The notes beneath the pieces are model-generated. The model was not told the DNA's origin. It searched no databases and saw only the letters and a list, made by a program, of their open reading frames with translations. Made by a program: the position numbers and the translations under genes. DNA of 64,000 nt from NCBI GenBank assembly GCA_027063065.1, contig JAMOSO010000007.1:1290-65289 (forward strand), read 5' to 3'. Positions 7,134 to 18,781 of this stretch are shown here, in pieces. This DNA comes from Planctomycetota bacterium (GTDB taxonomy: Bacteria; Planctomycetota; JAMOSO01). The first letter of the stretch is position 1. Each line of letters starts with the position of its first letter.

Positions 7134-7796
7134 ATGATAAATAGTCCTATTGTACTTAGTCTAGATAATTATAATTTTCCAGATGCAAATTTGGCAATGC
7201 GTGAACCAGATGGTCTTTTGGCAATAGGGGGGGATTTATCGGCAGAGCGTATTGTCAATGCATATACTAATGGGATTTTTCCTTGGTTTAGTGAAGAAGA
7301 TCCAATTTTGTGGTGGAGTCCTAATCCGCGTGCGGTTTTGTTTCCGTCAGATTTGCATATTTCACGTAGTTTACAAAAAGATTTACGCAAAAGGATTTAC
7401 ACCACTACTAAAAATCATGCGTTTGAAACAGTGATTAAAAATTGTGCAACTGTGTGTAGAAAAGAACAAAATGGTACGTGGATTATAGACCCGATGCAAC
7501 GTGCATACATAAATTTATATAATATGGGAATAGCTCATAGTATTGAAGTGTGGTCTAATCAGCAATTAGTAGGTGGCTTATATGGTTTAAAATTGGGTAA
7601 AGTGTTTTTTGGTGAGTCAATGTTTCACATTAAAACAAACGCCTCTAAAGTTGCGATGGTGAGCTTAGTGCAATGGCTGTTAGAGATAGGGGTAGAGCTT
7701 GTGGATTGTCAAGTAAGCTCTACCCATTTAAATAGCTTAGGAGCGCAAAGTATACCTAGATCAGATTTTTTAGCCTTATTAAATCGTTTAATTTAA
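7134..7796 (+). CDS. aat: leucyl/phenylalanyl-tRNA--protein transferase
   Basis: 220 aa. 'REPDGLLAIGGDLS...GIFPWFSEEDPILWWSPNPRAVL' is near-identical in pattern to the E. coli Aat core. Confidence 0.9.
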   Translation: MINSPIVLSLDNYNFPDANLAMREPDGLLAIGGDLSAERIVNAYTNGIFPWFSEEDPILWWSPNPRAVLFPSDLHISRSLQKDLRKRIYTTTKNHAFETVIKNCATVCRKEQNGTWIIDPMQRAYINLYNMGIAHSIEVWSNQQLVGGLYGLKLGKVFFGESMFHIKTNASKVAMVSLVQWLLEIGVELVDCQVSSTHLNSLGAQSIPRSDFLALLNRLI

Positions 7797-9734
7797 TCAT
7801 GATATCTTTTTTAATTTAGCTTTAGCTTGTTTATAAAGATATTTGCGTTCAGTATTAATCATCATATTAATATCAGAATCAGTTATGTTATCATCAGATA
7901 ATAAATTTTTAATAGCTTTTCGTTCGGCAGCGCAAACATTGCCATCGGCTAGTGCTAGGCGTATTAATTGTCTTAAAACCTCATGTGTTTCTTTGTGATT
8001 TTTTAGATCTAATTTAAAATCAGGATTATTTTTAACGTGATTTTCAATGGAATTAAATAGTTTTTGACTAACATTTAATTTGTTTGCCATTTTTAATAAG
8101 GTTTCACGTTCTTTTATGTCGCGTTTGCCATCACTATCCATAACTAAAATCATAGCAGCAATTACTTCTTCAATTGGAATGTTATATAGTGGTGCTTCAA
8201 TTACATCTGGCAATTTGGCTTTGGCTTCGCTTATGGCGTCGTGATAATCTTCGTATTTATATGGTTCAATAGAATCTAAAACCCAATTTTTTAATCCGTC
8301 ATTTAAAGCTATACCACAATAACTACAGCAGTTGCTACTGTCTACAGTTTCAGGGGCTCCACAGCCTATACAACAATTTGCCGATAGAGCGTGTTTAGGA
8401 TTGCTAATGGCGTCTTTATGTCGACACATAATTAATTTATGCTTATATATACGAGAATTTAAAAAGCTGGGTACATCACCTGGTCCAGGTTTAGATTCTT
8501 GCCAACATCCAGACCAAGTTACTATAATATGGCAACGATTCATATCTGCTTTATTATCAAATCTAATAATTTCCACTGAGCCCACTGCTAAATCTTGTGC
8601 AAAAGTACGCATACCTTTTTGGTTTAATTGAAATTCGTTTTTGTGGATATTTAAAAATTTATTATTTGCCATTTTACTTAAATATTTAGCATTACAAAAA
8701 TATCTCGCACTGTGATATCGCCAAAACATAATAGAGGCTCTATCTTCTAGGTATTGAATATTTAATGCTTTATCTTGTTGTTTTAATTGGCTTGCTCCAG
8801 CAATTAAGTCTGGATTACGATGTTGAAATGCTTTAGCTTGGGTTATTTCTGAAAGTACCCAATCATATTCGCCACTGGTAATTAAGGCCTGACAAGACAT
8901 ACATTCTATTTTATCTGATAGCTTTAATGGTGATCCGCAGTTTGGACAAAACCCTTCAATCGCACCGCCTTGTTGTAATGTTTTAGTTCCTGGTTTGCGT
9001 AAAAACGACCAGTATTCTTTAAAGATATCTGTCGACAAAGAATATTTTTTATCTGAGCCTTCTTTAATATAATAATCTGCAGCAGATGCACTAATTGCTA
9101 CAATAATGACGTCAAAAAATTCATCGCATTTATATGATACTACATGTGCATCTTTAATGTCGATATCGGTAATTTTATTAATATATCCATTGGCTTTGTT
9201 TAATTCTAAATTTAGGTTTAATCTATCGTAGATGGCATCACTTAACATGCTTCTAACAGGAGACATGTTTTGGTTGTTCCAAGAATTTTGTAAAGCAAGA
9301 AAGGTTTGCTTGGCGCGTTCTAAAAATTGAATTTCATCAAAATTATTATCACGTTGAATTAATTTGTTTTTTTCATTGCGATTCATTGCAACATCATATT
9401 TGGCATTGCCTGTAGTGATGACATGGCTTTTATAAGAGTTAGCACCTCGTTGTGTACCAACTAAGCTAATATAACCACCTATTAATAACATAGGTATTCC
9501 AATTAATGGATGTTCAAGGCATAACCTAATTAATAAATATAATATTAAACCATCGCCAGAACCACCGCTGGAATGGCCTCCAGAGTATCCACCGCTAGAA
9601 TGGCTACTACCAAAGTTACCGCCACCGCCCATGCGTGCCCAAGTTTCGCTGGGCATAAATAATAGAATTATTAACGAGGCAAAGTATATTTGCCTCGGGG
9701 TTATTAAGCTTGTGAGTTTCCGCATTCTGGGCAA
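7797..9734 (-). CDS. membrane protein with Gly/Ser-rich segment, Tim44-like domain, two zinc ribbons and C-terminal TerB-like domain
   Basis: 645 aa. It has N-terminal hydrophobic segments flanking a GGGGNFGSSHSSGGYSGGHSSGGSG low-complexity tract. Two ZnRs are present: 'CPNCGSPL..x10..CMSC' and 'CIGCGAP..x9..CCSYCG'. The C-terminal tellurite-resistance/TerB-like helical domain reads 'DGKRDIKERETLL...ADGNVCAAERKAIK'. It overlaps the upstream SPFH gene by about 31 nt. Confidence 0.6.
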   Translation of the reverse strand: MPRMRKLTSLITPRQIYFASLIILLFMPSETWARMGGGGNFGSSHSSGGYSGGHSSGGSGDGLILYLLIRLCLEHPLIGIPMLLIGGYISLVGTQRGANSYKSHVITTGNAKYDVAMNRNEKNKLIQRDNNFDEIQFLERAKQTFLALQNSWNNQNMSPVRSMLSDAIYDRLNLNLELNKANGYINKITDIDIKDAHVVSYKCDEFFDVIIVAISASAADYYIKEGSDKKYSLSTDIFKEYWSFLRKPGTKTLQQGGAIEGFCPNCGSPLKLSDKIECMSCQALITSGEYDWVLSEITQAKAFQHRNPDLIAGASQLKQQDKALNIQYLEDRASIMFWRYHSARYFCNAKYLSKMANNKFLNIHKNEFQLNQKGMRTFAQDLAVGSVEIIRFDNKADMNRCHIIVTWSGCWQESKPGPGDVPSFLNSRIYKHKLIMCRHKDAISNPKHALSANCCIGCGAPETVDSSNCCSYCGIALNDGLKNWVLDSIEPYKYEDYHDAISEAKAKLPDVIEAPLYNIPIEEVIAAMILVMDSDGKRDIKERETLLKMANKLNVSQKLFNSIENHVKNNPDFKLDLKNHKETHEVLRQLIRLALADGNVCAAERKAIKNLLSDDNITDSDINMMINTERKYLYKQAKAKLKKIS

Positions 9735-10810
9735 AATTTAGCAGTTGGAGAAAGTAGCGCATTACAGTTCTTGCAGTGCATTTCTTGGGCAGCCCCACAC
9801 AGTGGACAAAATTTAGAGTCTTTAGGAATAGCTTGATTGCATTTTACACAGCTTTGTTCTTGTATGTGTAACGATTGGCCGCATCCACCACAAAATTTAG
9901 CATTGCTAGGTGATTGTTGTTGGCATTTAGGGCAGATTATAACTTCTTTTGGTTGTATTTGCTCTTGAGCTTTACCCATCATTCCGCCAAGATTAGCACC
10001 TACCATCATACCCATCATGTCCCCAGTGCCTCCTTGGTTATTGGCAGCATCTCTTAAAGCTTTTGCTTGTTGGTATTGGGCATATTGATTTAAATTGCCA
10101 ACGGCGCTCATTGATGCGCGTTCGTCAATGGCATTTTGTACGTCATCTGGCAAGCTGATGTTTTCTAGGGTAAAAGATAATAGCTCTAATCCCATTTTGA
10201 TGAAATAGCCATTTAATTTTGTTTTTATAGCATCACTTATTTCATCATATTGTGCAGCTAAATCTAAGGCTGGTATTTTAAGCTCTGCGATTGCATCCGA
10301 AAATGATGATACAATTTTAGTACGCACTTGATCTTCTAGAGCATCGGCAAAAAACTCTTCGCCAGCTCCTACAAATCGACTTAGCATATTTTCTTGTTCA
10401 CCAATTTTATAAGAATAATTACCTCTACATCTTAATCTGACAATGCCAAAGTCAATATCGCGTAACATAATTGGATTTGGAGTACCCCATTTGCGATTTA
10501 ATTGTTCTGTAGTATCAATAAAATAAATTTCAGCTTTGAATGGCGAATTAAACCCATATTTCCATCCATATAAGGTGGATAGTATGGGCATATTTTTGGT
10601 TTCTAGCGTATATGTACCAGCTTCAAACTGATCGGCAATTTTGCCTTCACGCACAAAGATGGCTTTTTGGCCTGGACGCACAATAAGTTGTGCTCCCATT
10701 TTGATTTCATTTTGATAGCGATTAAATCTATGTACCAACAAACCGTCTGTTTTATCAGTCCATTCAATAATATCTATAAATTCATTTTTTAATTTATTAA
10801 ATAATCCCAT
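9704..10810 (-). CDS. SPFH/Band-7 domain protein with three C-terminal zinc-ribbon modules
   Basis: 368 aa. The N-terminal 250 aa have Band-7 character. A Gly/Met-rich linker follows. Then come three tandem CxxC-x10-11-CxxC ribbons (CPKCQ...CGGCG; CVKCN...CPLCG; CKNCN...CPECG). Confidence 0.7.
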   Translation of the reverse strand: MGLFNKLKNEFIDIIEWTDKTDGLLVHRFNRYQNEIKMGAQLIVRPGQKAIFVREGKIADQFEAGTYTLETKNMPILSTLYGWKYGFNSPFKAEIYFIDTTEQLNRKWGTPNPIMLRDIDFGIVRLRCRGNYSYKIGEQENMLSRFVGAGEEFFADALEDQVRTKIVSSFSDAIAELKIPALDLAAQYDEISDAIKTKLNGYFIKMGLELLSFTLENISLPDDVQNAIDERASMSAVGNLNQYAQYQQAKALRDAANNQGGTGDMMGMMVGANLGGMMGKAQEQIQPKEVIICPKCQQQSPSNAKFCGGCGQSLHIQEQSCVKCNQAIPKDSKFCPLCGAAQEMHCKNCNALLSPTAKFCPECGNSQA

Positions 10811-10908
10811 ATTCCTCCTAACATAAAGATTTTTAATTTACTAATAGTATAGCCTTATTTATAAATAATAAACTTGAATTTTTTTTAATAGCAGTTATTA
10901 CTTTTGGT

Positions 10909-11724
10909 ATGTTTAAAATTAGTGTTATTATTCCTACATATAATCGACCGTTACAAACTTTATCTGCAATTAATTCTGTATTGGCTCAAACGTATAAAAA
11001 TTATGAATTAATAGTAGTCGATGATGGTTCAGAAAAACTCTTAGATACTTCTATATTGCAAAAGCACAATAATTGTCGCGTGCTTTTATTAGATAAAAAT
11101 TATGGGGTTTCTACTGCACGCAATGAAGGTATTAAGGCGTCTAACGGTAATTGGATAGCTTTTTTAGATAGTGATGACATTTGGCATTGTGATAAATTAA
11201 GACAGCAGGTTTTATATTTAAAACAAAATTTAGAATGTCAGATAGTACAAACTCAGGAGCAATGGATTAGGCATGGTAAAAAAGTTAACCAGCCCAAAAA
11301 ATGGCATAAAAAACAAGGTTGGATTTTTGAGCTTTCTTTGCAACGTTGTACTATTAGTCCTTCGTCAGTGTTGATTCAACGTAGTTTATTAGATGAAGTT
11401 GGTTGGTTTAATCCTAATTATTTAGCCTGTGAGGACTATGATTTATGGTTGCGAATAACATTAATTAGGCCTGTTGGTTTAGTAAATAAAATTTTAATGA
11501 CTAAATATGGAGGGGCTTCAGATCAATTATCTACATCTGTACAGAAGCAAGATATTTTTAGAATAAAGGCATTGCATAATATTTTAACATATGATTTAAA
11601 TATTAATCAACGTGAAGCTGTATTGGATTGTTTAAATAAAAAAATTGAAATAGTAGTAAATGGTTTTAAAAAACGTGGTAAATTAGCAGAGGCTGAAAAT
11701 TTTTATATTGATTTTCATACTTAG
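10909..11724 (+). CDS. family 2 glycosyltransferase
   Basis: 'ISVIIPTYNRP...ELIVVDDGS' opening, plus a 'DSDD' (DxD) motif at about residue 88. Confidence 0.75.
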   Translation: MFKISVIIPTYNRPLQTLSAINSVLAQTYKNYELIVVDDGSEKLLDTSILQKHNNCRVLLLDKNYGVSTARNEGIKASNGNWIAFLDSDDIWHCDKLRQQVLYLKQNLECQIVQTQEQWIRHGKKVNQPKKWHKKQGWIFELSLQRCTISPSSVLIQRSLLDEVGWFNPNYLACEDYDLWLRITLIRPVGLVNKILMTKYGGASDQLSTSVQKQDIFRIKALHNILTYDLNINQREAVLDCLNKKIEIVVNGFKKRGKLAEAENFYIDFHT

Positions 11725-11792: not shown

Positions 11793-12674
11793 ATGAAATT
11801 TGTTAATCCTCAAAATGATTTTGCATTTAAAAAGATATTTGGTAATGAACAAAAAACATCTATTTTGGTTTCTTTATTAAATTCAGTTTTAGATTTTAAA
11901 GGTCAAAATAAGATAAAAAGCGTATCGATAGCTAATCCATATCAAGTTCCAAAGATTGATGCGTTAAAAGAAACAGTCTTAGATGTTAAAGCAGTAAATC
12001 GGCGAGGAGAGAGTTTTATTGTAGAAATGCAAAGAAAAGACAATCATGATTTTGCTAAGCGAAGCTTATATTATACTTCTAAAGCTTATGTGTCTCAGTT
12101 AGAGCCAGGAGTACAGCACGGGTATGCTAATTTAAAAAAAGTTTATTTTATAGGTTTTTTAAATTTTAATATGTTTGCAGGAGACAACTATATAAGTAGA
12201 CATTTAATTTTAAATAAAGACACGCTCAAACAAGAAATTAATGATTTTGAGTTTACTTTTATAGAACTGACAAAATTTAAAAAAAAGTTATCAGATTTAA
12301 CTACGGTATTAGATAAATGGATATATTTTATCAATAATGTACAGAATTTAACTATGATACCTCAGGAATTTTCTAATTTAGATGAATTTAAATTAGCTTT
12401 TGATACCGCTAATCAGTGTTGTTGGGATGCTAAGGAATTAGAAATTTATGAATATATGGCATTTAAAGAATATGAAGACCGCATGTACGTGCAACGTGAA
12501 ATAGCTAAAGGTGTTCAAAAAGGCATTGAGCAAGGCATTGAGCAAGGCATTGAGCAAGGCATTGAGCAAGCGAAAATTGAGACTGCTAAAAATCTTAAAG
12601 CTTTAAATATAGATGTTAATGTAATTGCTAAATCAACAGGGTTATCTATAAGACAAATTGATAATATTCATTAA
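11793..12674 (+). CDS. Rpn/YhgA-like PD-(D/E)XK recombination-promoting nuclease / putative transposase
   Basis: 293 aa. The 'FAFKKIFG' N-terminus, a 'LDVKAV...ESFIVEMQ' D...E-x-Q nuclease-core pattern and 'FIELTKF' are characteristic of the YhgA-like family. The C-terminal tail contains (GIEQ)x4. Confidence 0.65.
   Translation: MKFVNPQNDFAFKKIFGNEQKTSILVSLLNSVLDFKGQNKIKSVSIANPYQVPKIDALKETVLDVKAVNRRGESFIVEMQRKDNHDFAKRSLYYTSKAYVSQLEPGVQHGYANLKKVYFIGFLNFNMFAGDNYISRHLILNKDTLKQEINDFEFTFIELTKFKKKLSDLTTVLDKWIYFINNVQNLTMIPQEFSNLDEFKLAFDTANQCCWDAKELEIYEYMAFKEYEDRMYVQREIAKGVQKGIEQGIEQGIEQGIEQAKIETAKNLKALNIDVNVIAKSTGLSIRQIDNIH
12523..12570 (+). repeat. perfect 12-nt tandem repeat x4 (ggcattgagcaa) inside the Rpn-like CDS
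   Basis: Seen directly. It encodes GIEQGIEQGIEQGIEQ in frame. Confidence 0.9.
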
Positions 12675-14446: not shown

Positions 14447-15427
14447 ATGGATTCAAATAAAAAATTAATTGTTACATTTATTTGTTGTTTTGTAATTGCT
14501 GGTGTATTGGCAATCAAACTTAATAGGGTACAACATCAAGTTTCTCCAACTCGTAAGTTAGTGGACAATTTACCTGTGGCTGGGTCGCAAAAATTATTAG
14601 CTGATATACAATGGATGCAATTTATTCAGTATATAGGTCGTCAAAAAACTTTAGATAAATCTAGTGCTGCAAATGTCGAAAAGCGCTTAAATAACATTAT
14701 TGATTTAGATCCAGATTTTGCAAAAGTCTATTATGATGGTGCTTTAGTTTTGATGAATGATAACCCTGACGGCGCTTTAAAAGTGTTAGAAAAAGGTATG
14801 TTACATCCAATTATTGGTCGTAATTGGCGTTTATATATGCTTGCAGGTCATATTTTAATTCAGGGAGAAAGGGCAAATCGTCATGCACATCTACCTATAA
14901 ATTATAATCGTGTCAAACGTGCGGCATTATATTTTAAAAAAGCAATGAATTGTGCAGATTCGCAAAATTATGTAGTTAATCAATGGCTACAAGCAGAAGC
15001 TTTTAATGCTAGTGAAACTGCTAGTCATTTGACTCAGTTGCAGACTATGCTGAGATTGTACAAAAAGCATTTAACTGATATGCAAGATAATGAAAATGAA
15101 ATGTCTACGGGTATTTTTGGTAAATATGATACACAAGAATTTATTGATAAAATGATATCTGAGGCTTTAGAATTGCGTCAAGAAAGTGAAAATCAAAAAG
15201 GTCTGAAAGCGTTATTAGATGAAGTAGTGTTGACTGTTTTTCCTAATCAAGAAATAGACCCTTATACTTTACGCCCATATCCTGCAGGTTTTAGGTTTTC
15301 TCCACAAACAGGAAAGCCATTAAAGGTACATGGTGTGTGCAAGCATTGTGGACGTGTGTTGAAGGGACCATTTTGTTGGTATGATGGTACTGATAATGTG
15401 GCAGAGTGGAATAAATCTAAGCACTAA
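14447..15427 (+). CDS. membrane-anchored helical (TPR-like) protein with C-terminal Cys4 ribbon
   Basis: N-terminal TM (LIVTFICCFVIAGVLAI), a strong SD (aaggagg), and C-terminal 'CKHCGRVLKGPFCWYDG'. Confidence 0.5.
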   Translation: MDSNKKLIVTFICCFVIAGVLAIKLNRVQHQVSPTRKLVDNLPVAGSQKLLADIQWMQFIQYIGRQKTLDKSSAANVEKRLNNIIDLDPDFAKVYYDGALVLMNDNPDGALKVLEKGMLHPIIGRNWRLYMLAGHILIQGERANRHAHLPINYNRVKRAALYFKKAMNCADSQNYVVNQWLQAEAFNASETASHLTQLQTMLRLYKKHLTDMQDNENEMSTGIFGKYDTQEFIDKMISEALELRQESENQKGLKALLDEVVLTVFPNQEIDPYTLRPYPAGFRFSPQTGKPLKVHGVCKHCGRVLKGPFCWYDGTDNVAEWNKSKH

Positions 15428-15441
15428 GTGTTTGGTCTTAG

Positions 15442-16140
15442 TTGATGGTCATTAAAAGAAAAGTTATTAGTTTATTTACGCTAATGCTTTTCTTTTTTTT
15501 ATATTTGGTTGCCGAGCGTGGTTTACGTACGCAAGTATATGATAATGCTCAATTAAATAGTTTTGATTATCGAAAAACTATGGAAATGTTACCAGAGTTT
15601 TTGAGAATAGCATTGGAGCATCAGGTATTATTGGTTGAAAAACGTAAAAATGTTAATAATGCTAAAGGCGATGCTAAAATTAAGGCAATGTACATTTTAG
15701 CTGATGAGTATGGTTTAGGTATTAATTTTAGTGATTTAATGTTGCAAATAACACAAGATTCTAAGTTAAGAAATTCCAAATACGCTAGTCGCGCTTGGTT
15801 ACATGTGTTAAAGGGCAAATCAGACAAAAATGTATTAGCAATTTATTTGCAATATTTGCACTCTATTAAAAAAGCGACTCATACAGACTTGATAGATTTG
15901 TTTAAATCTGGTTTACAGTTGGCACCTTTTGCAGAAGAAGAGGTTAAATTAAAGTATTATTTAAATATGGCAAAAAATAATTTGATTGATAAAACTTTGA
16001 TAGATGCTTATGAAGACTTTGTGTTATTGTCATTTAAAGATGCAAATATAAAACAAATAGCAGAGAAATATTTAAAAGCATCTAAAGATGATTTATTGCA
16101 ATTTGAAGCCTCTCAAGCACGTAAAAGGGCTACAAAATAA
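15442..16140 (+). CDS. membrane-anchored hypothetical protein
   Basis: Single N-terminal TM, the remainder helical. Same tight operon. Confidence 0.45.
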   Translation: MMVIKRKVISLFTLMLFFFLYLVAERGLRTQVYDNAQLNSFDYRKTMEMLPEFLRIALEHQVLLVEKRKNVNNAKGDAKIKAMYILADEYGLGINFSDLMLQITQDSKLRNSKYASRAWLHVLKGKSDKNVLAIYLQYLHSIKKATHTDLIDLFKSGLQLAPFAEEEVKLKYYLNMAKNNLIDKTLIDAYEDFVLLSFKDANIKQIAEKYLKASKDDLLQFEASQARKRATK

Positions 16141-16141
16141 T

Positions 16142-16888
16142 ATGTGGGCTATAGCATGTCATACTTTGTATAAGGTCAAAGAGCCAGCTTTTGTATTATT
16201 GTTATTTGTAGGTGCTTTATTGGCTTGGTTTACTAAAGATATGGGTTGTATTTCGTTGATTGGTGAAGGTATTCATCGAGATAATATATTAATAGGTACA
16301 GTTATAATATTATCTTTTGGTGTAGTGGTGGCTTTGTTAGTAGGAGCAACAGAAATACCTAAGGATATGGACGCTAATATGATAGCAATTTTTTTAGGAA
16401 AATCTCTAAAACGAGAAGCGTATATTTTAGGTAAGGTAATAGGAGTTGCCATTTTAATTGTTAGCTGTTCAGGATTTTGGCTAACTTTACTTTTGTTAAG
16501 TCGTTATTGTTTTACGTTTGATAATGCAATCGAGGCTATGTCGTTTGTTGATATTTGTAGTCAATATTTCAGCTTACTTTTATTATTGCCTGTTTGTGCG
16601 CTTGCCATTTGTACATCGTGTTTATTTGGTGATTTGGGTGCTATGATTTTTAGTTTTATTTATATGGGTTGTTCTTTATTGGTGAGCATTGTACCTTATA
16701 TTTTAAAAATAGTTCCAAAGCCAATTAATTATATATTAGAAATACCTTATTATTTAGTGCCTAATGTTATGTATTTTGTCAGTAGTTTAGATGTCATAGG
16801 TTTTTTATATTTGGTTATGTATGCTTTAGTTATAGGTATGTGTTTTGTATTGATTGCACAAAATGTATTTAACAAGGCGGAGTTATAG
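16142..16888 (+). CDS. polytopic membrane protein (ABC-2 permease-like)
   Basis: About six TM helices. I moved the start to the Met at 16142, which abuts the upstream stop at 16140; the track ORF starts at 16088. Confidence 0.45.
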   Translation: MWAIACHTLYKVKEPAFVLLLFVGALLAWFTKDMGCISLIGEGIHRDNILIGTVIILSFGVVVALLVGATEIPKDMDANMIAIFLGKSLKREAYILGKVIGVAILIVSCSGFWLTLLLLSRYCFTFDNAIEAMSFVDICSQYFSLLLLLPVCALAICTSCLFGDLGAMIFSFIYMGCSLLVSIVPYILKIVPKPINYILEIPYYLVPNVMYFVSSLDVIGFLYLVMYALVIGMCFVLIAQNVFNKAEL

Positions 16889-17014
16889 GGCGCATTTAAA
16901 TCTTTTGTACTGTGATAAATTTCTTGAGAATAGGCATAACTTGTGTATCATTGTAATTTTATTATATTCGCTGTTTATGCTTTTGCGTATACAGTTTTGT
17001 TTTGAAAGAAATAT

Positions 17015-18781
17015 ATGAATCCACATACTTTTCATATCCCAGTACTTGGGACAGCCTTTACCATAGATACACCTATTAAGGTGGCTCGTTTTGGTATATC
17101 TTCTGTTATATCTTTAGCGGATGACTTTTTAATTGAAGATATGCGTAAAGTTTATGCTACCAAGTATTCTCAAGAATATACTCGTATTGAAAATAATGCT
17201 GAAGATGCTAGGGCACGTCGTATTACCAGTTATTTAAATTTAGTGAATTATATTGTTAATCAACAAATAGAAAATTTAAAACAAGAAGAATTTAAAGCTG
17301 ATACTGAAATTACTAAGTATTTTGAATTATTACCCGATGGTGTTTTAAAAACTAAATATCAAGCTATGTTAAATGCTTCGGCATCTGATAGACACAAATT
17401 AGAAGAAGAGTTGCGAGGAGCTATTAGGCCAGGTCGTATTGATGTTAATATTATGACTAAACTAGATAGGGATAATTATAAAAATCGTCAAAAGTTACCT
17501 TCTGAATTTAGTGATGCTTTAGCTGGCTTGCGTGGTTTTGCCCAAAGTGATTTAAGTAATGCGTGTGTTGTGTTTTCGGCTGGAATGAATCCTCGATTGT
17601 ATGGTTATGCTACAGAATTTAAAGATTTTTATCCAAATGAAGAAGGCGTCATTAAAAAAGGTATTATACTTAAGGTAAGTGATTATCGTTCTACAGCTAC
17701 GCAAGGTAAATTTTTAGCCAAGCGTGGTTTGTGGGTACAAGAATATAGGATAGAATCAGGCCTTAATTGTGGTGGTCACGCATTTGCTACTGCTGGGCTA
17801 TTAATGGGACCAATATTACAAGAATTTAAAGATAATCGTGATGATTTGCAGGCAAAGCTTGTTAAAATTTGGTTAAAGGGCATTGATAAGCAAAAGCATC
17901 AGGCTCATGGTTTAGAACCTAAGTTTGGCATTACTTATCAGGGAGGTTTAGGTAGTGCCCAAGAAAATAAATTTCTATGTACTTATTATAATTTAGAAGG
18001 TACTGGGTGGGGAACTCCATTTATGTTGGTACCAGAGGCTATCACAATAGATGATGATCATTTGTTAAAATTAGCTAAAGCTAAAACAGGTGATGTGTGC
18101 TTAAGTAAGGCGTCTCCATTAGGTGTGCCATTTTGGTTATTAAAGGCATCTTCTAGTGAAGACGAGCGCAAACAACGTATATCTGCAAATAAATCTGGTA
18201 GTCCTTGTCCTCAGGGTATATTAAAATTTGATACGGAATTTACTGAAGTGCCTATTTGTACGGCATCAAGGGGTTATCAAAATTTAAAATTAAAACAATT
18301 ACAAGATGCTAATTTAAGTGATGAACAAAGAGCAGAATTAATAGACGATGTTTTATGTAAAAGTTGTATTTGTAAAGATTTAGGTGGCTCAGCTCAGCTG
18401 ATATATAATGTTGTAAAACAGGTGGCCATTACTGTGTGCTCAGGGCCTAATATTGTAAATTTTTCGCAAACAGCAACTTTGCAAGAAATGGTGGATTTTA
18501 TTTATGGTCGAGTGAGTGGTTTAGCAGATTCTGATCGTCCGCATGTATTTTTAAATGAATTAAATATTTATATTGAATATTTCCGCACAGAATGGCATCG
18601 TTTTTCTATTGGGTTGTTAGACAAGAAAGATACTTATTTTAAAGAATTCCAACAAAATTTATTAAATGGTGTTGAATATTATAAAAATATTACTGAAAAT
18701 TTTATGGAAGATACACGTAGTACATTTTTGACAAGATTAGATGCTTTGCGCCGTGAAGTGGAACATTTAATTCCTGTATAG
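17015..18781 (+). CDS. conserved hypothetical protein, 588 aa, unknown fold
   Basis: Long intact ORF. Conserved-looking blocks are 'IPVLGTAFTIDTPIKVARFGISSVISLADD' and 'LNCGGHAFATAGLLMGP'. I could not assign a family. Confidence 0.5.
   Translation: MNPHTFHIPVLGTAFTIDTPIKVARFGISSVISLADDFLIEDMRKVYATKYSQEYTRIENNAEDARARRITSYLNLVNYIVNQQIENLKQEEFKADTEITKYFELLPDGVLKTKYQAMLNASASDRHKLEEELRGAIRPGRIDVNIMTKLDRDNYKNRQKLPSEFSDALAGLRGFAQSDLSNACVVFSAGMNPRLYGYATEFKDFYPNEEGVIKKGIILKVSDYRSTATQGKFLAKRGLWVQEYRIESGLNCGGHAFATAGLLMGPILQEFKDNRDDLQAKLVKIWLKGIDKQKHQAHGLEPKFGITYQGGLGSAQENKFLCTYYNLEGTGWGTPFMLVPEAITIDDDHLLKLAKAKTGDVCLSKASPLGVPFWLLKASSSEDERKQRISANKSGSPCPQGILKFDTEFTEVPICTASRGYQNLKLKQLQDANLSDEQRAELIDDVLCKSCICKDLGGSAQLIYNVVKQVAITVCSGPNIVNFSQTATLQEMVDFIYGRVSGLADSDRPHVFLNELNIYIEYFRTEWHRFSIGLLDKKDTYFKEFQQNLLNGVEYYKNITENFMEDTRSTFLTRLDALRREVEHLIPV

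Follow-up and report, generated by a model that had tools for sequence, protein, structure and literature searches.

Genes A and B (our designations) lie next to each other on the minus strand of a 64,000-nucleotide stretch from a Planctomycetota bacterium (NCBI GenBank assembly GCA_027063065.1, contig JAMOSO010000007.1, positions 1,290 to 65,289). The whole stretch is called the window, and its numbering is used throughout; the open reading frames (ORFs) of A and B together occupy 7797-10810 exactly. A encodes an SPFH protein that is soluble and belongs to the YdjI clade, and B encodes a membrane protein that combines Tim44-like, zinc-ribbon and TerB-like domains. The two genes are a real, conserved two-gene module, and the A-then-B adjacency is conserved across phyla. 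The explanation that we favour, with modest confidence, is that they constitute an operon whose products cooperate at the inner membrane, on its cytoplasmic side, where B would act as the membrane receptor recruiting A and both would form a scaffold for membrane maintenance or stress tolerance. By analogy with YdjI of Bacillus subtilis, B probably stands in for YdjG/YdjH as the receptor of A, since A has no anchor and B has one, the gene order is conserved and often overlapping, and B replaces YdjG in the same slot. An initial annotation of the window had already recognized two ORFs here with five zinc ribbons between them, and both points were confirmed: the ORFs lie on the minus strand, and A carries three CxxC-x10-CxxC ribbons and B two of the CxxC-x11-CxxC type.

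Gene A encodes a soluble YdjI-type SPFH protein

The features of gene A are as follows.

9704..10810, minus strand: gene A, soluble YdjI-type SPFH protein of 368 amino acids (ORF, Pfam and AlphaFold2 (AF2) model)
10814..10819, minus strand: Shine-Dalgarno sequence AGGAGG, 3 nt 5' of the gene A ATG (direct sequence reading)
10106..10735, minus strand: SPFH (Band_7_1) domain, residues 26-235 (Pfam PF13421 and Foldseek)
9947..10039, minus strand: Gly/Met-rich (small)xxx(small) zipper linker, residues 258-288, GDMMGMMVGANLGGMMG (conservation and AF2)
9722..9934, minus strand: three CxxC-x10-CxxC zinc ribbons, residues 293-310, 321-338 and 346-363 (regular expression and Pfam)

The Shine-Dalgarno sequence of A is strong. 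A matches Pfam PF13421 (Band_7_1) with 275 bits against a cutoff of 24 (E 5e-82), over profile positions 1-210 of 211. The Band-7 identity given in the initial annotation is thereby confirmed, and A belongs to Band_7_1, the YdjI clade, of which YdjI is, to our knowledge, the sole studied member. No hydrophobic segment is present in A, the highest 19-residue Kyte-Doolittle mean being 0.99. The AF2 model of A is of moderate confidence (predicted local distance difference test (pLDDT) score 72.9) and contains the SPFH domain followed by two helices that extend to approximately residue 257; the long wall helix of cage-forming SPFH proteins is missing. In a Foldseek search, the model matched stomatin, HflK/C, prohibitin, flotillin and QmcA with E values down to about 1e-9, the best match being human stomatin (E 1.2e-9), and no solved structure was found that is a close sequence relative of A.

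After the SPFH domain comes the zipper linker, for which the model gives a helix over residues 263-278 at low pLDDT; its residues G267, M268, M269 and G271 do not vary among 65 orthologs. The C-terminal ribbons are recognized by the Pfam families DZR (E 3e-20) and Zn_Ribbon_1 (E 9e-15) and are kept in the orthologs, in which their number ranges from 1 to 3. In general, the A orthologs are unusually conserved, with a mean column identity of 58%.

Gene B encodes a membrane protein with two Tim44-like domains and a TerB-like domain

The features of gene B are listed from the N-terminus to the C-terminus of the protein.

7797..9725, minus strand: gene B, membrane protein of 642 amino acids from ATG 9725, alternative start TTG 9734 (ORF and homolog N-termini)
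9630..9725, minus strand: signal-peptide-like or first transmembrane (TM) segment, residues 1-32, ending in a conserved AR(A/M) (alignment)
9552..9629, minus strand: Gly/Ser/aromatic-rich tail, residues 33-58, predicted outside the cytoplasm (alignment)
9351..9551, minus strand: TM helix, residues ~59-91, kinked at P73 and running into a predicted cytoplasmic stalk helix to residue 125 (hydropathy and AF2)
8826..9350, minus strand: Tim44-like (NTF2-fold) domain 1 with inserted zinc ribbon, residues 126-300
8892-8948, minus strand: ribbon of Tim44-like domain 1, residues 260-278
8256..8798, minus strand: Tim44-like domain 2 with inserted zinc ribbon, residues 310-490 (hhalign and AF2)
8316-8372, minus strand: ribbon of Tim44-like domain 2, residues 452-470
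7800..8213, minus strand: TerB-like helical domain, residues 505-642, with two DG..D..E motifs

The extent of the overlap between A and B is set by the start of B. The database gene call for B begins at Met24, with zero overlap. The 23 residues ahead of Met24 align with the N-termini of homologs, for example the 65%-identical P0002, and because this upstream sequence is conserved, the long form starting at ATG 9725 is preferred. The gene overlap from which the initial annotation had argued thus amounts to 22 nt from ATG 9725 or 31 nt from TTG 9734, and vanishes if B starts at the database Met24.

The AF2 model of B, built on an alignment of 117 homologs, is confident (pLDDT 85.8, predicted template modelling score 0.78), and only residues 1-3 and 25-56 are weakly modelled. 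It consists of a short N-terminal helix (residues 10-22), a disordered Gly-rich stretch, helices, two alpha+beta domains and a helical C-terminal domain. B begins with a positive N-region, followed by a hydrophobic core and a near-invariant AR(A/M)-GGGG junction, and A30 and R31 are nearly invariant in the 117 homologs. By its composition, this segment is signal-like, and it may be either cleaved or retained as a TM helix. The Gly-rich tail (pLDDT below 50), in which G33 is invariant, is found in 115 of the 117 homologs with a median length of about 29 residues (55% Gly, 15% Ser and approximately 10% Phe/Tyr), and it is a signature of the family. Judging from the flanking hydrophobic segments, the tail probably lies outside the cytoplasm; both fates of the first segment, cleavage or retention, would give this placement. 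The following helix contains the Kyte-Doolittle windows above 1.6 (residues 59-73), and in the AF2 model it is split into helices 58-71 and 73-125, the latter of 53 residues, with pLDDT of 85-93 and a nearly invariant P73. All of B after the TM helix at residues 59-91, including the cysteine-rich ribbons, would accordingly to this topology be cytoplasmic.

The Tim44 and TerB folds proposed in the initial annotation score above the Pfam cutoffs and are backed by structural matches. Domain 1 matches Pfam Tim44 (PF04280) with 56.3 bits against a cutoff of 29.6 (E 5e-15). When residues 112-300 of B were compared with residues 301-495 by hhalign, the two segments aligned over 182 columns with a probability of 99.9% (E 1.7e-33), and in the AF2 model their secondary-structure elements follow in identical order. 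On the strength of this alignment, the seemingly unknown middle region of B is assigned as a second Tim44-like domain with a ribbon of its own, detected solely via its homology to domain 1. B shows the NTF2-like alpha+beta fold that resembles the C-terminal domain of Tim44, and in each copy the ribbon (starting at residues 260 and 452 by regular expression) is inserted just ahead of the final (D/N)WVL strand. The ribbon cysteines are invariant, eight of eight, in the 117 homologs. B lies outside the TimA family by the NCBIfam cutoffs, scoring 29.2 bits against 80 and 15.4 against 200 with the two models (NF033778 and NF033779).

At the C-terminus, Pfam TerB (PF05099) is matched with 28.7 bits against a cutoff of 24.4 (E 1.8e-6), and a profile search with the C-terminal 138 residues retrieves 2ou3 (E 1.9e-6), 2h5n (E 1.3e-4) and the TerB structure 2jxu (E 0.011). 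Two acidic motifs in this domain are invariant, D532/G533/E539 and D594/G595/E601. The initial annotation had spoken of a domain of "TerB/Toast-rack type", which merges two different domains. TerB and Toastrack folds are unrelated; neither A nor B has a Pfam match to the Toastrack family at E<=1, and the C-terminal domain of B is all-helical in the AF2 model. DUF4178 (PF13785), which had likewise been brought up, has no Pfam match in A or B, and DUF4178 genes were seen only in an operon with one A ortholog (described below). Three features of B go beyond what had been noted earlier: the second Tim44-like domain with its ribbon, the signal-like N-terminus with its AR(A/M)-GGGG junction, and the Gly-rich tail as a family signature.

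With regard to distribution, the full-length B family gives more than 500 matches of 620-690 residues at 30-40% identity, and forms 622 clusters (50% identity, E<=1e-30) among 1.84 billion proteins. The architecture had been taken as undescribed, but it is not rare: relatives of B occur in at least 584 species genomes and are annotated only as 'TIM44-like domain-containing protein'. Hosts are chiefly Planctomycetes-Verrucomicrobia-Chlamydiae (PVC) bacteria (Victivallales, Kiritimatiellia, Verrucomicrobiota, Lentisphaeria and Planctomycetota), Fermentibacteria/Aegiribacteria, Elusimicrobia, Riflebacteria, Thermodesulfobacteriota and one Bacteriovoracaceae metagenome-assembled genome, which is the closest named relative among the matches listed. 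The B family is sizeable, common in databases and uncharacterised.

Linkage of A and B across phyla

Linkage was assessed from the B side in the best 80 B loci, 65 of which carry at least 1.3 kb of upstream DNA; these loci are phylogenetically related, so the counts do not represent independent events. In 13 of the 65 loci, from Bacteriovoracaceae, Thermodesulfobacteriota, Victivallales, Kiritimatiellia, Verrucomicrobiota and Lentisphaeria, the gene immediately upstream of B, on the same strand, is an A ortholog with an identity to A of 54-67% (46% in L060). From the A side, the closest homologs (approximately 80) have three ribbons and are 54-81% identical to A, and at least 13 of them sit on contigs of the same size as contigs with B matches. 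B is directly downstream of A in six of seven further A orthologs, in one of which B is cut by the contig end with its ARAGGGGG N-terminus still visible. In about 8 of 19 pairs, the stop codon of A and the start codon of B share 1 or 4 nt; the other pairs are spaced by 27-285 nt. In Elusimicrobia, a Band_7_1 paralog of A with ribbons (28-32% identical) is located directly downstream of B in three loci, and a fourth locus has one 4 kb away; this order, B followed by the paralog, is an independent gene order. Since the number of Band_7_1 genes in a genome is typically small, adjacency of A and B by chance is negligible at the rates seen here. The co-occurrence of A and B homologs, on which the initial annotation had made its proposal depend, is thus seen across phyla.

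The same loci can also be read in another way, in which B is a self-sufficient tethered protein that senses or organises lipid or metal, or tethers some other machine as mL45 and Tim44 do, and the adjacency of A reflects co-regulation and no complex. About 80% of the sampled B loci have no Band_7_1 neighbour, many B genes look monocistronic, and B is more widespread than the A-B pair. Other neighbours of B also recur, namely a DUF4404 gene upstream (9 loci) and a phospholipase D (PLD)-like gene downstream (5 loci), and the nearest structural relatives of B are membrane tethers for other machines. However, a self-sufficient B sits poorly with the six of seven close A orthologs that are followed by B, often with overlapping stop and start codons, and with the second, independent order that joins both families in Elusimicrobia. 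Moreover, on two Victivallales chromosomes where B is solitary, a 70%-identical SPFH+GYF_2 relative of A is encoded elsewhere. We regard a B that works on its own as rather unlikely.

The SPFH+GYF_2 proteins are a subfamily of A relatives that are 65-71% identical in the SPFH domain and have GYF_2 (DUF4339) in place of the zinc ribbons (P0200-P0239; L167, L168). One such relative lies directly upstream of B (L060:378-1481). In Victivallales, the relative is found on the same chromosome as B and unlinked to it; on OY787460.1, for example, its position is 2.93 Mb and that of B is 2.39 Mb.

In the nine DUF4404 loci, mostly from Victivallales/Lentisphaerae, a protein of 108-140 residues is encoded directly or one gene upstream of B on the same strand (e.g. 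L013:7404-7790 and L032:7463-7846), and it may be an alternative partner of B. The PLD-like (HKD) protein of the five other loci, mostly from Fermentibacteria, has 173-175 residues and is encoded directly downstream of B (e.g. L056:9734-10255). A PLD hydrolase is present in some Band-7/PspA operons (Ravi et al.). A DUF6172 protein of about 96 residues was considered as a third component and rejected, as it occurs downstream of B in only three Kiritimatiellae loci (L170:4139-4429, L171:7658-7954 and L018:9980-10267); its position probably reflects lineage synteny.

Comparison with YdjGHI and the place of PspA

YdjI of B. subtilis is a soluble protein that depends on YdjG and YdjH to reach the membrane, and it binds PspA, is needed for PspA foci and affects membrane fluidity (PMC8581546). 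A resembles YdjI in that both are Band_7_1 proteins that lack a TM segment and have a Gly-rich linker of low complexity and one or more C-terminal zinc ribbons (YdjI features: PMC8581546), and the parallel drawn in the initial annotation holds; A differs in carrying three ribbons. Beside the SPFH gene, both systems have a gene for a membrane protein that bears zinc ribbons, and both contain Gly-rich stretches of low complexity. YdjG has been described with two ribbons, an NTF2/YpeB-like domain and a C-terminal TM helix (Ravi et al.), and its NTF2-like domain is of the same fold class as the Tim44-like domains of B. On the other hand, no pspA gene is adjacent here, and there is one partner gene instead of two, downstream of the SPFH gene instead of upstream. 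YdjG and YdjH (TPM) partners are absent from the operon, which holds only A and B. The TM helix of B is N-terminal instead of C-terminal, and B has two ribbon-bearing Tim44-like domains, a TerB domain and no TPM domain (no Pfam match in B at E<=1).

The gene slot next to Band_7_1 was also surveyed in a metagenome scan with A, the best 80 loci of which contain more distant Band_7_1 groups (41-54% identity). A YdjG-like protein of about 368 residues is encoded immediately downstream of the Band_7_1 gene in 17 of the 80 loci, and its cluster spans 19 of the 80 (e.g. L137:6108-7214); these neighbours bear two ribbons at the N-terminus and a TM helix at the C-terminus, and show a weak hint of PepSY/YpeB. 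In 27 of the 80 loci, a VanZ-like gene lies upstream. The slot 3' of a soluble Band_7_1 gene thus repeatedly holds a ribbon-bearing membrane protein, which in the clade of A is B. We do not claim that B is a homolog of YdjG: in hhalign comparisons of the YdjG-like family with the Tim44-like domains of B, the zinc ribbon alone was aligned, and the analogy between B and the YdjG-like proteins therefore rests on position and architecture, not on homology.

The seventh A ortholog mentioned above (P0124, 63% identical) does not precede B but closes an operon (L172:3512-11095) that consists of two DUF4178 genes, DUF350, spermine synthase, amine oxidase, an unknown 336-residue gene and then the A ortholog, with no PspA gene in it. 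The DUF4178-DUF350-spermine synthase-amine oxidase operon type is Psp-associated (Ravi et al.), and this ortholog therefore links A to Psp-type contexts.

These parallels raise the question of whether A and B are the receptor arm of a PspA-dependent system like YdjGHI, in which A recruits a PspA/IM30 protein whose gene lies at another place in the genome. The binding of YdjI to PspA and its requirement for PspA foci (PMC8581546) point in this direction, as does the presence of an A ortholog in an operon type that usually bears a CesT/Tir-PspA pair. The polyamine operon, however, has its A ortholog without PspA, as in the published variant in which a Band-7 protein replaces the CesT/Tir-PspA pair. 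In addition, Pfam searches for PspA were negative for the 10 kb on each side of A-B, for ten further ORFs of PspA size in the window and for the called genes in nine A or A-B loci that have Pfam tables; tblastn with an approximate E. coli PspA query, which is a weak test, gave no match in the window or in any locus. Dependence on a distant PspA is, in our estimate, a fairly unlikely explanation. The initial annotation had also presented Tim44 and TerB domains as established Psp partners, a statement that is not supported by two comparative-genomics surveys of Psp systems (including Ravi et al.), in which neither is named.

Comparison with other Tim44, TerB and SPFH systems

Compared with the Tim44 C-terminal domain, mL45 and bacterial Tim44/TimA proteins (PF04280, COG4395), the domain of B is doubled in tandem and has a CxxC-x11-CxxC ribbon inserted before the last strand. 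The doubled domain is also fused to TerB and follows a signal-like segment and a Gly-rich tail, and no translocon or ribosome link was seen for B. With the clan of TerB, DUF533 (YebE) and the DjlA N-terminal domain, B shares the matches of its C-terminal 138 residues to 2ou3, 2h5n and 2jxu, the two acidic DG..D..E motifs and a membrane-proximal setting; no Ter operon (terZABCDE-like genes) is present at the A-B locus. Literature searches found no paper on a TerB-Tim44 fusion in bacteria and no relevant paper on bacterial TimA or on a TerB domain together with SPFH, and a Pseudomonas aeruginosa SPFH paper has no Band_7_1, YdjI or Tim44 content.

TerB domains belong to Ter stress-response clusters, and SPFH proteins are found near some conflict systems. 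It might therefore be thought that A and B serve anti-phage or Ter-type stress defence, with TerB as the sensor and SPFH as the effector scaffold. Against this, neither protein matches any PADLOC family at E<=0.01, the neighbourhood is of the housekeeping type, and neither other Ter genes nor an enzymatic effector domain is present. The A orthologs are also unusually conserved, unlike fast-evolving defence genes. A defence role is very improbable and, with nothing in PADLOC, was set aside.

SPFH-NfeD pairs (QmcA-YbbJ, HflK/C-FtsH and stomatin-NfeD) resemble A-B in that an SPFH scaffold gene stands beside the gene of a dedicated membrane partner. They differ in that A has no TM anchor and no long coiled-coil wall helix, B has no NfeD/OB domain, and the proposed A-B assembly would be wholly on the cytoplasmic side.

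Proposed assembly of A and B at the inner membrane

In the receptor explanation favoured here, B would recruit soluble A and position it under the inner membrane, as YdjG and YdjH do for YdjI. The C-terminal domain of Tim44 and mL45 bind membrane, and the Tim44-like domains of B would lie on the inner leaflet in contact with lipid or membrane. The TerB domain would bind a divalent metal near the membrane and might signal a leakage of ions, the ribbons of A and B would mediate assembly, and the assembled scaffold would serve membrane maintenance or envelope-stress tolerance. The stress or repair role is suggested by genomic context only. The pair is best filed under the theme of a soluble SPFH protein with a membrane receptor, B being a distinctive and unstudied receptor.

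Several observations weigh against this proposal. Most B genes have no adjacent Band_7_1 gene, for example in Fermentibacteria, where most B genes are solitary, and in many Victivallales, and B is therefore not strictly dependent on an adjacent A. Band_7_1 proteins at 41-54% identity to A are unlinked to B in the 80 metagenome loci, and the hhalign comparison of B with the YdjG-like family aligned ribbons only. Neither pspA nor a stress regulator is tied to the pair, and a promoter and terminator scan of 7500-11100 gave counts no higher than the shuffled expectation. Finally, lipid and metal binding by B are extrapolated from distant relatives.

A bolder version of the receptor explanation may be considered, although we hold it to be speculative and quite unlikely. 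Here, the Tim44x2-TerB protein would be a new class of SPFH receptor acting in a PspA-free membrane surveillance, in which the extracytoplasmic Gly/aromatic tail and the membrane-proximal TerB metal site sense bilayer damage or ion leak and the two lipid-facing Tim44-like domains nucleate a YdjI-type SPFH patch under the lesion. If so, PVC bacteria, Bdellovibrionota, Elusimicrobia and related groups would possess a repair route parallel to ESCRT-III/PspA, and in other lineages B would work with SPFH partners to which it is not linked.

Bacterial SPFH proteins are widespread, and their membrane partners and functions are mostly unknown. The linkage described above implies at least one exchange of the probable receptor within the same SPFH clade, in favour of a membrane protein that is well conserved and of a quite different kind. 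Comparison of the partners hints at what a receptor of a soluble SPFH protein needs, namely ribbons, a domain of the NTF2 type, a TM segment and a Gly-rich tract. The locus is also a first lead to the function of about 600 sequence clusters that are labelled only 'TIM44-like domain-containing protein', and A-B offers a bacterial setting for a joint test of Tim44-fold membrane binding and TerB metal binding.

Genomic surroundings of A and B

The neighbours of A-B are housekeeping genes (aat, Rrf2, an FGGY kinase and a glycosyltransferase) on a contig with a G+C content of approximately 33%. The convergent aat gene (Leu/Phe-tRNA protein transferase, 7134-7796, plus strand) ends one base from the stop of B (7797, minus strand), and there is no intergenic room for a terminator on either strand.

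Further along, at 14447-18781 (plus strand), four successive ORFs of 326, 232, 266 and 588 residues without a Pfam match follow right after an ABC transporter pair. A PD-(D/E)XK 'transposase' nuclease (PDDEXK_2, E 2e-51) with a C-terminal direct repeat, (GIEQ)x4, is encoded at 11793-12674 (plus strand). A second, different SPFH locus is located about 47 kb from A-B at 57393-61195 (plus strand) and consists of three successive Band_7 (PF01145) genes of 617, 298 and 355 residues; it is flanked by an ABC-2 membrane protein before it (56434-57393) and a P-type ATPase after it (61164-63104).

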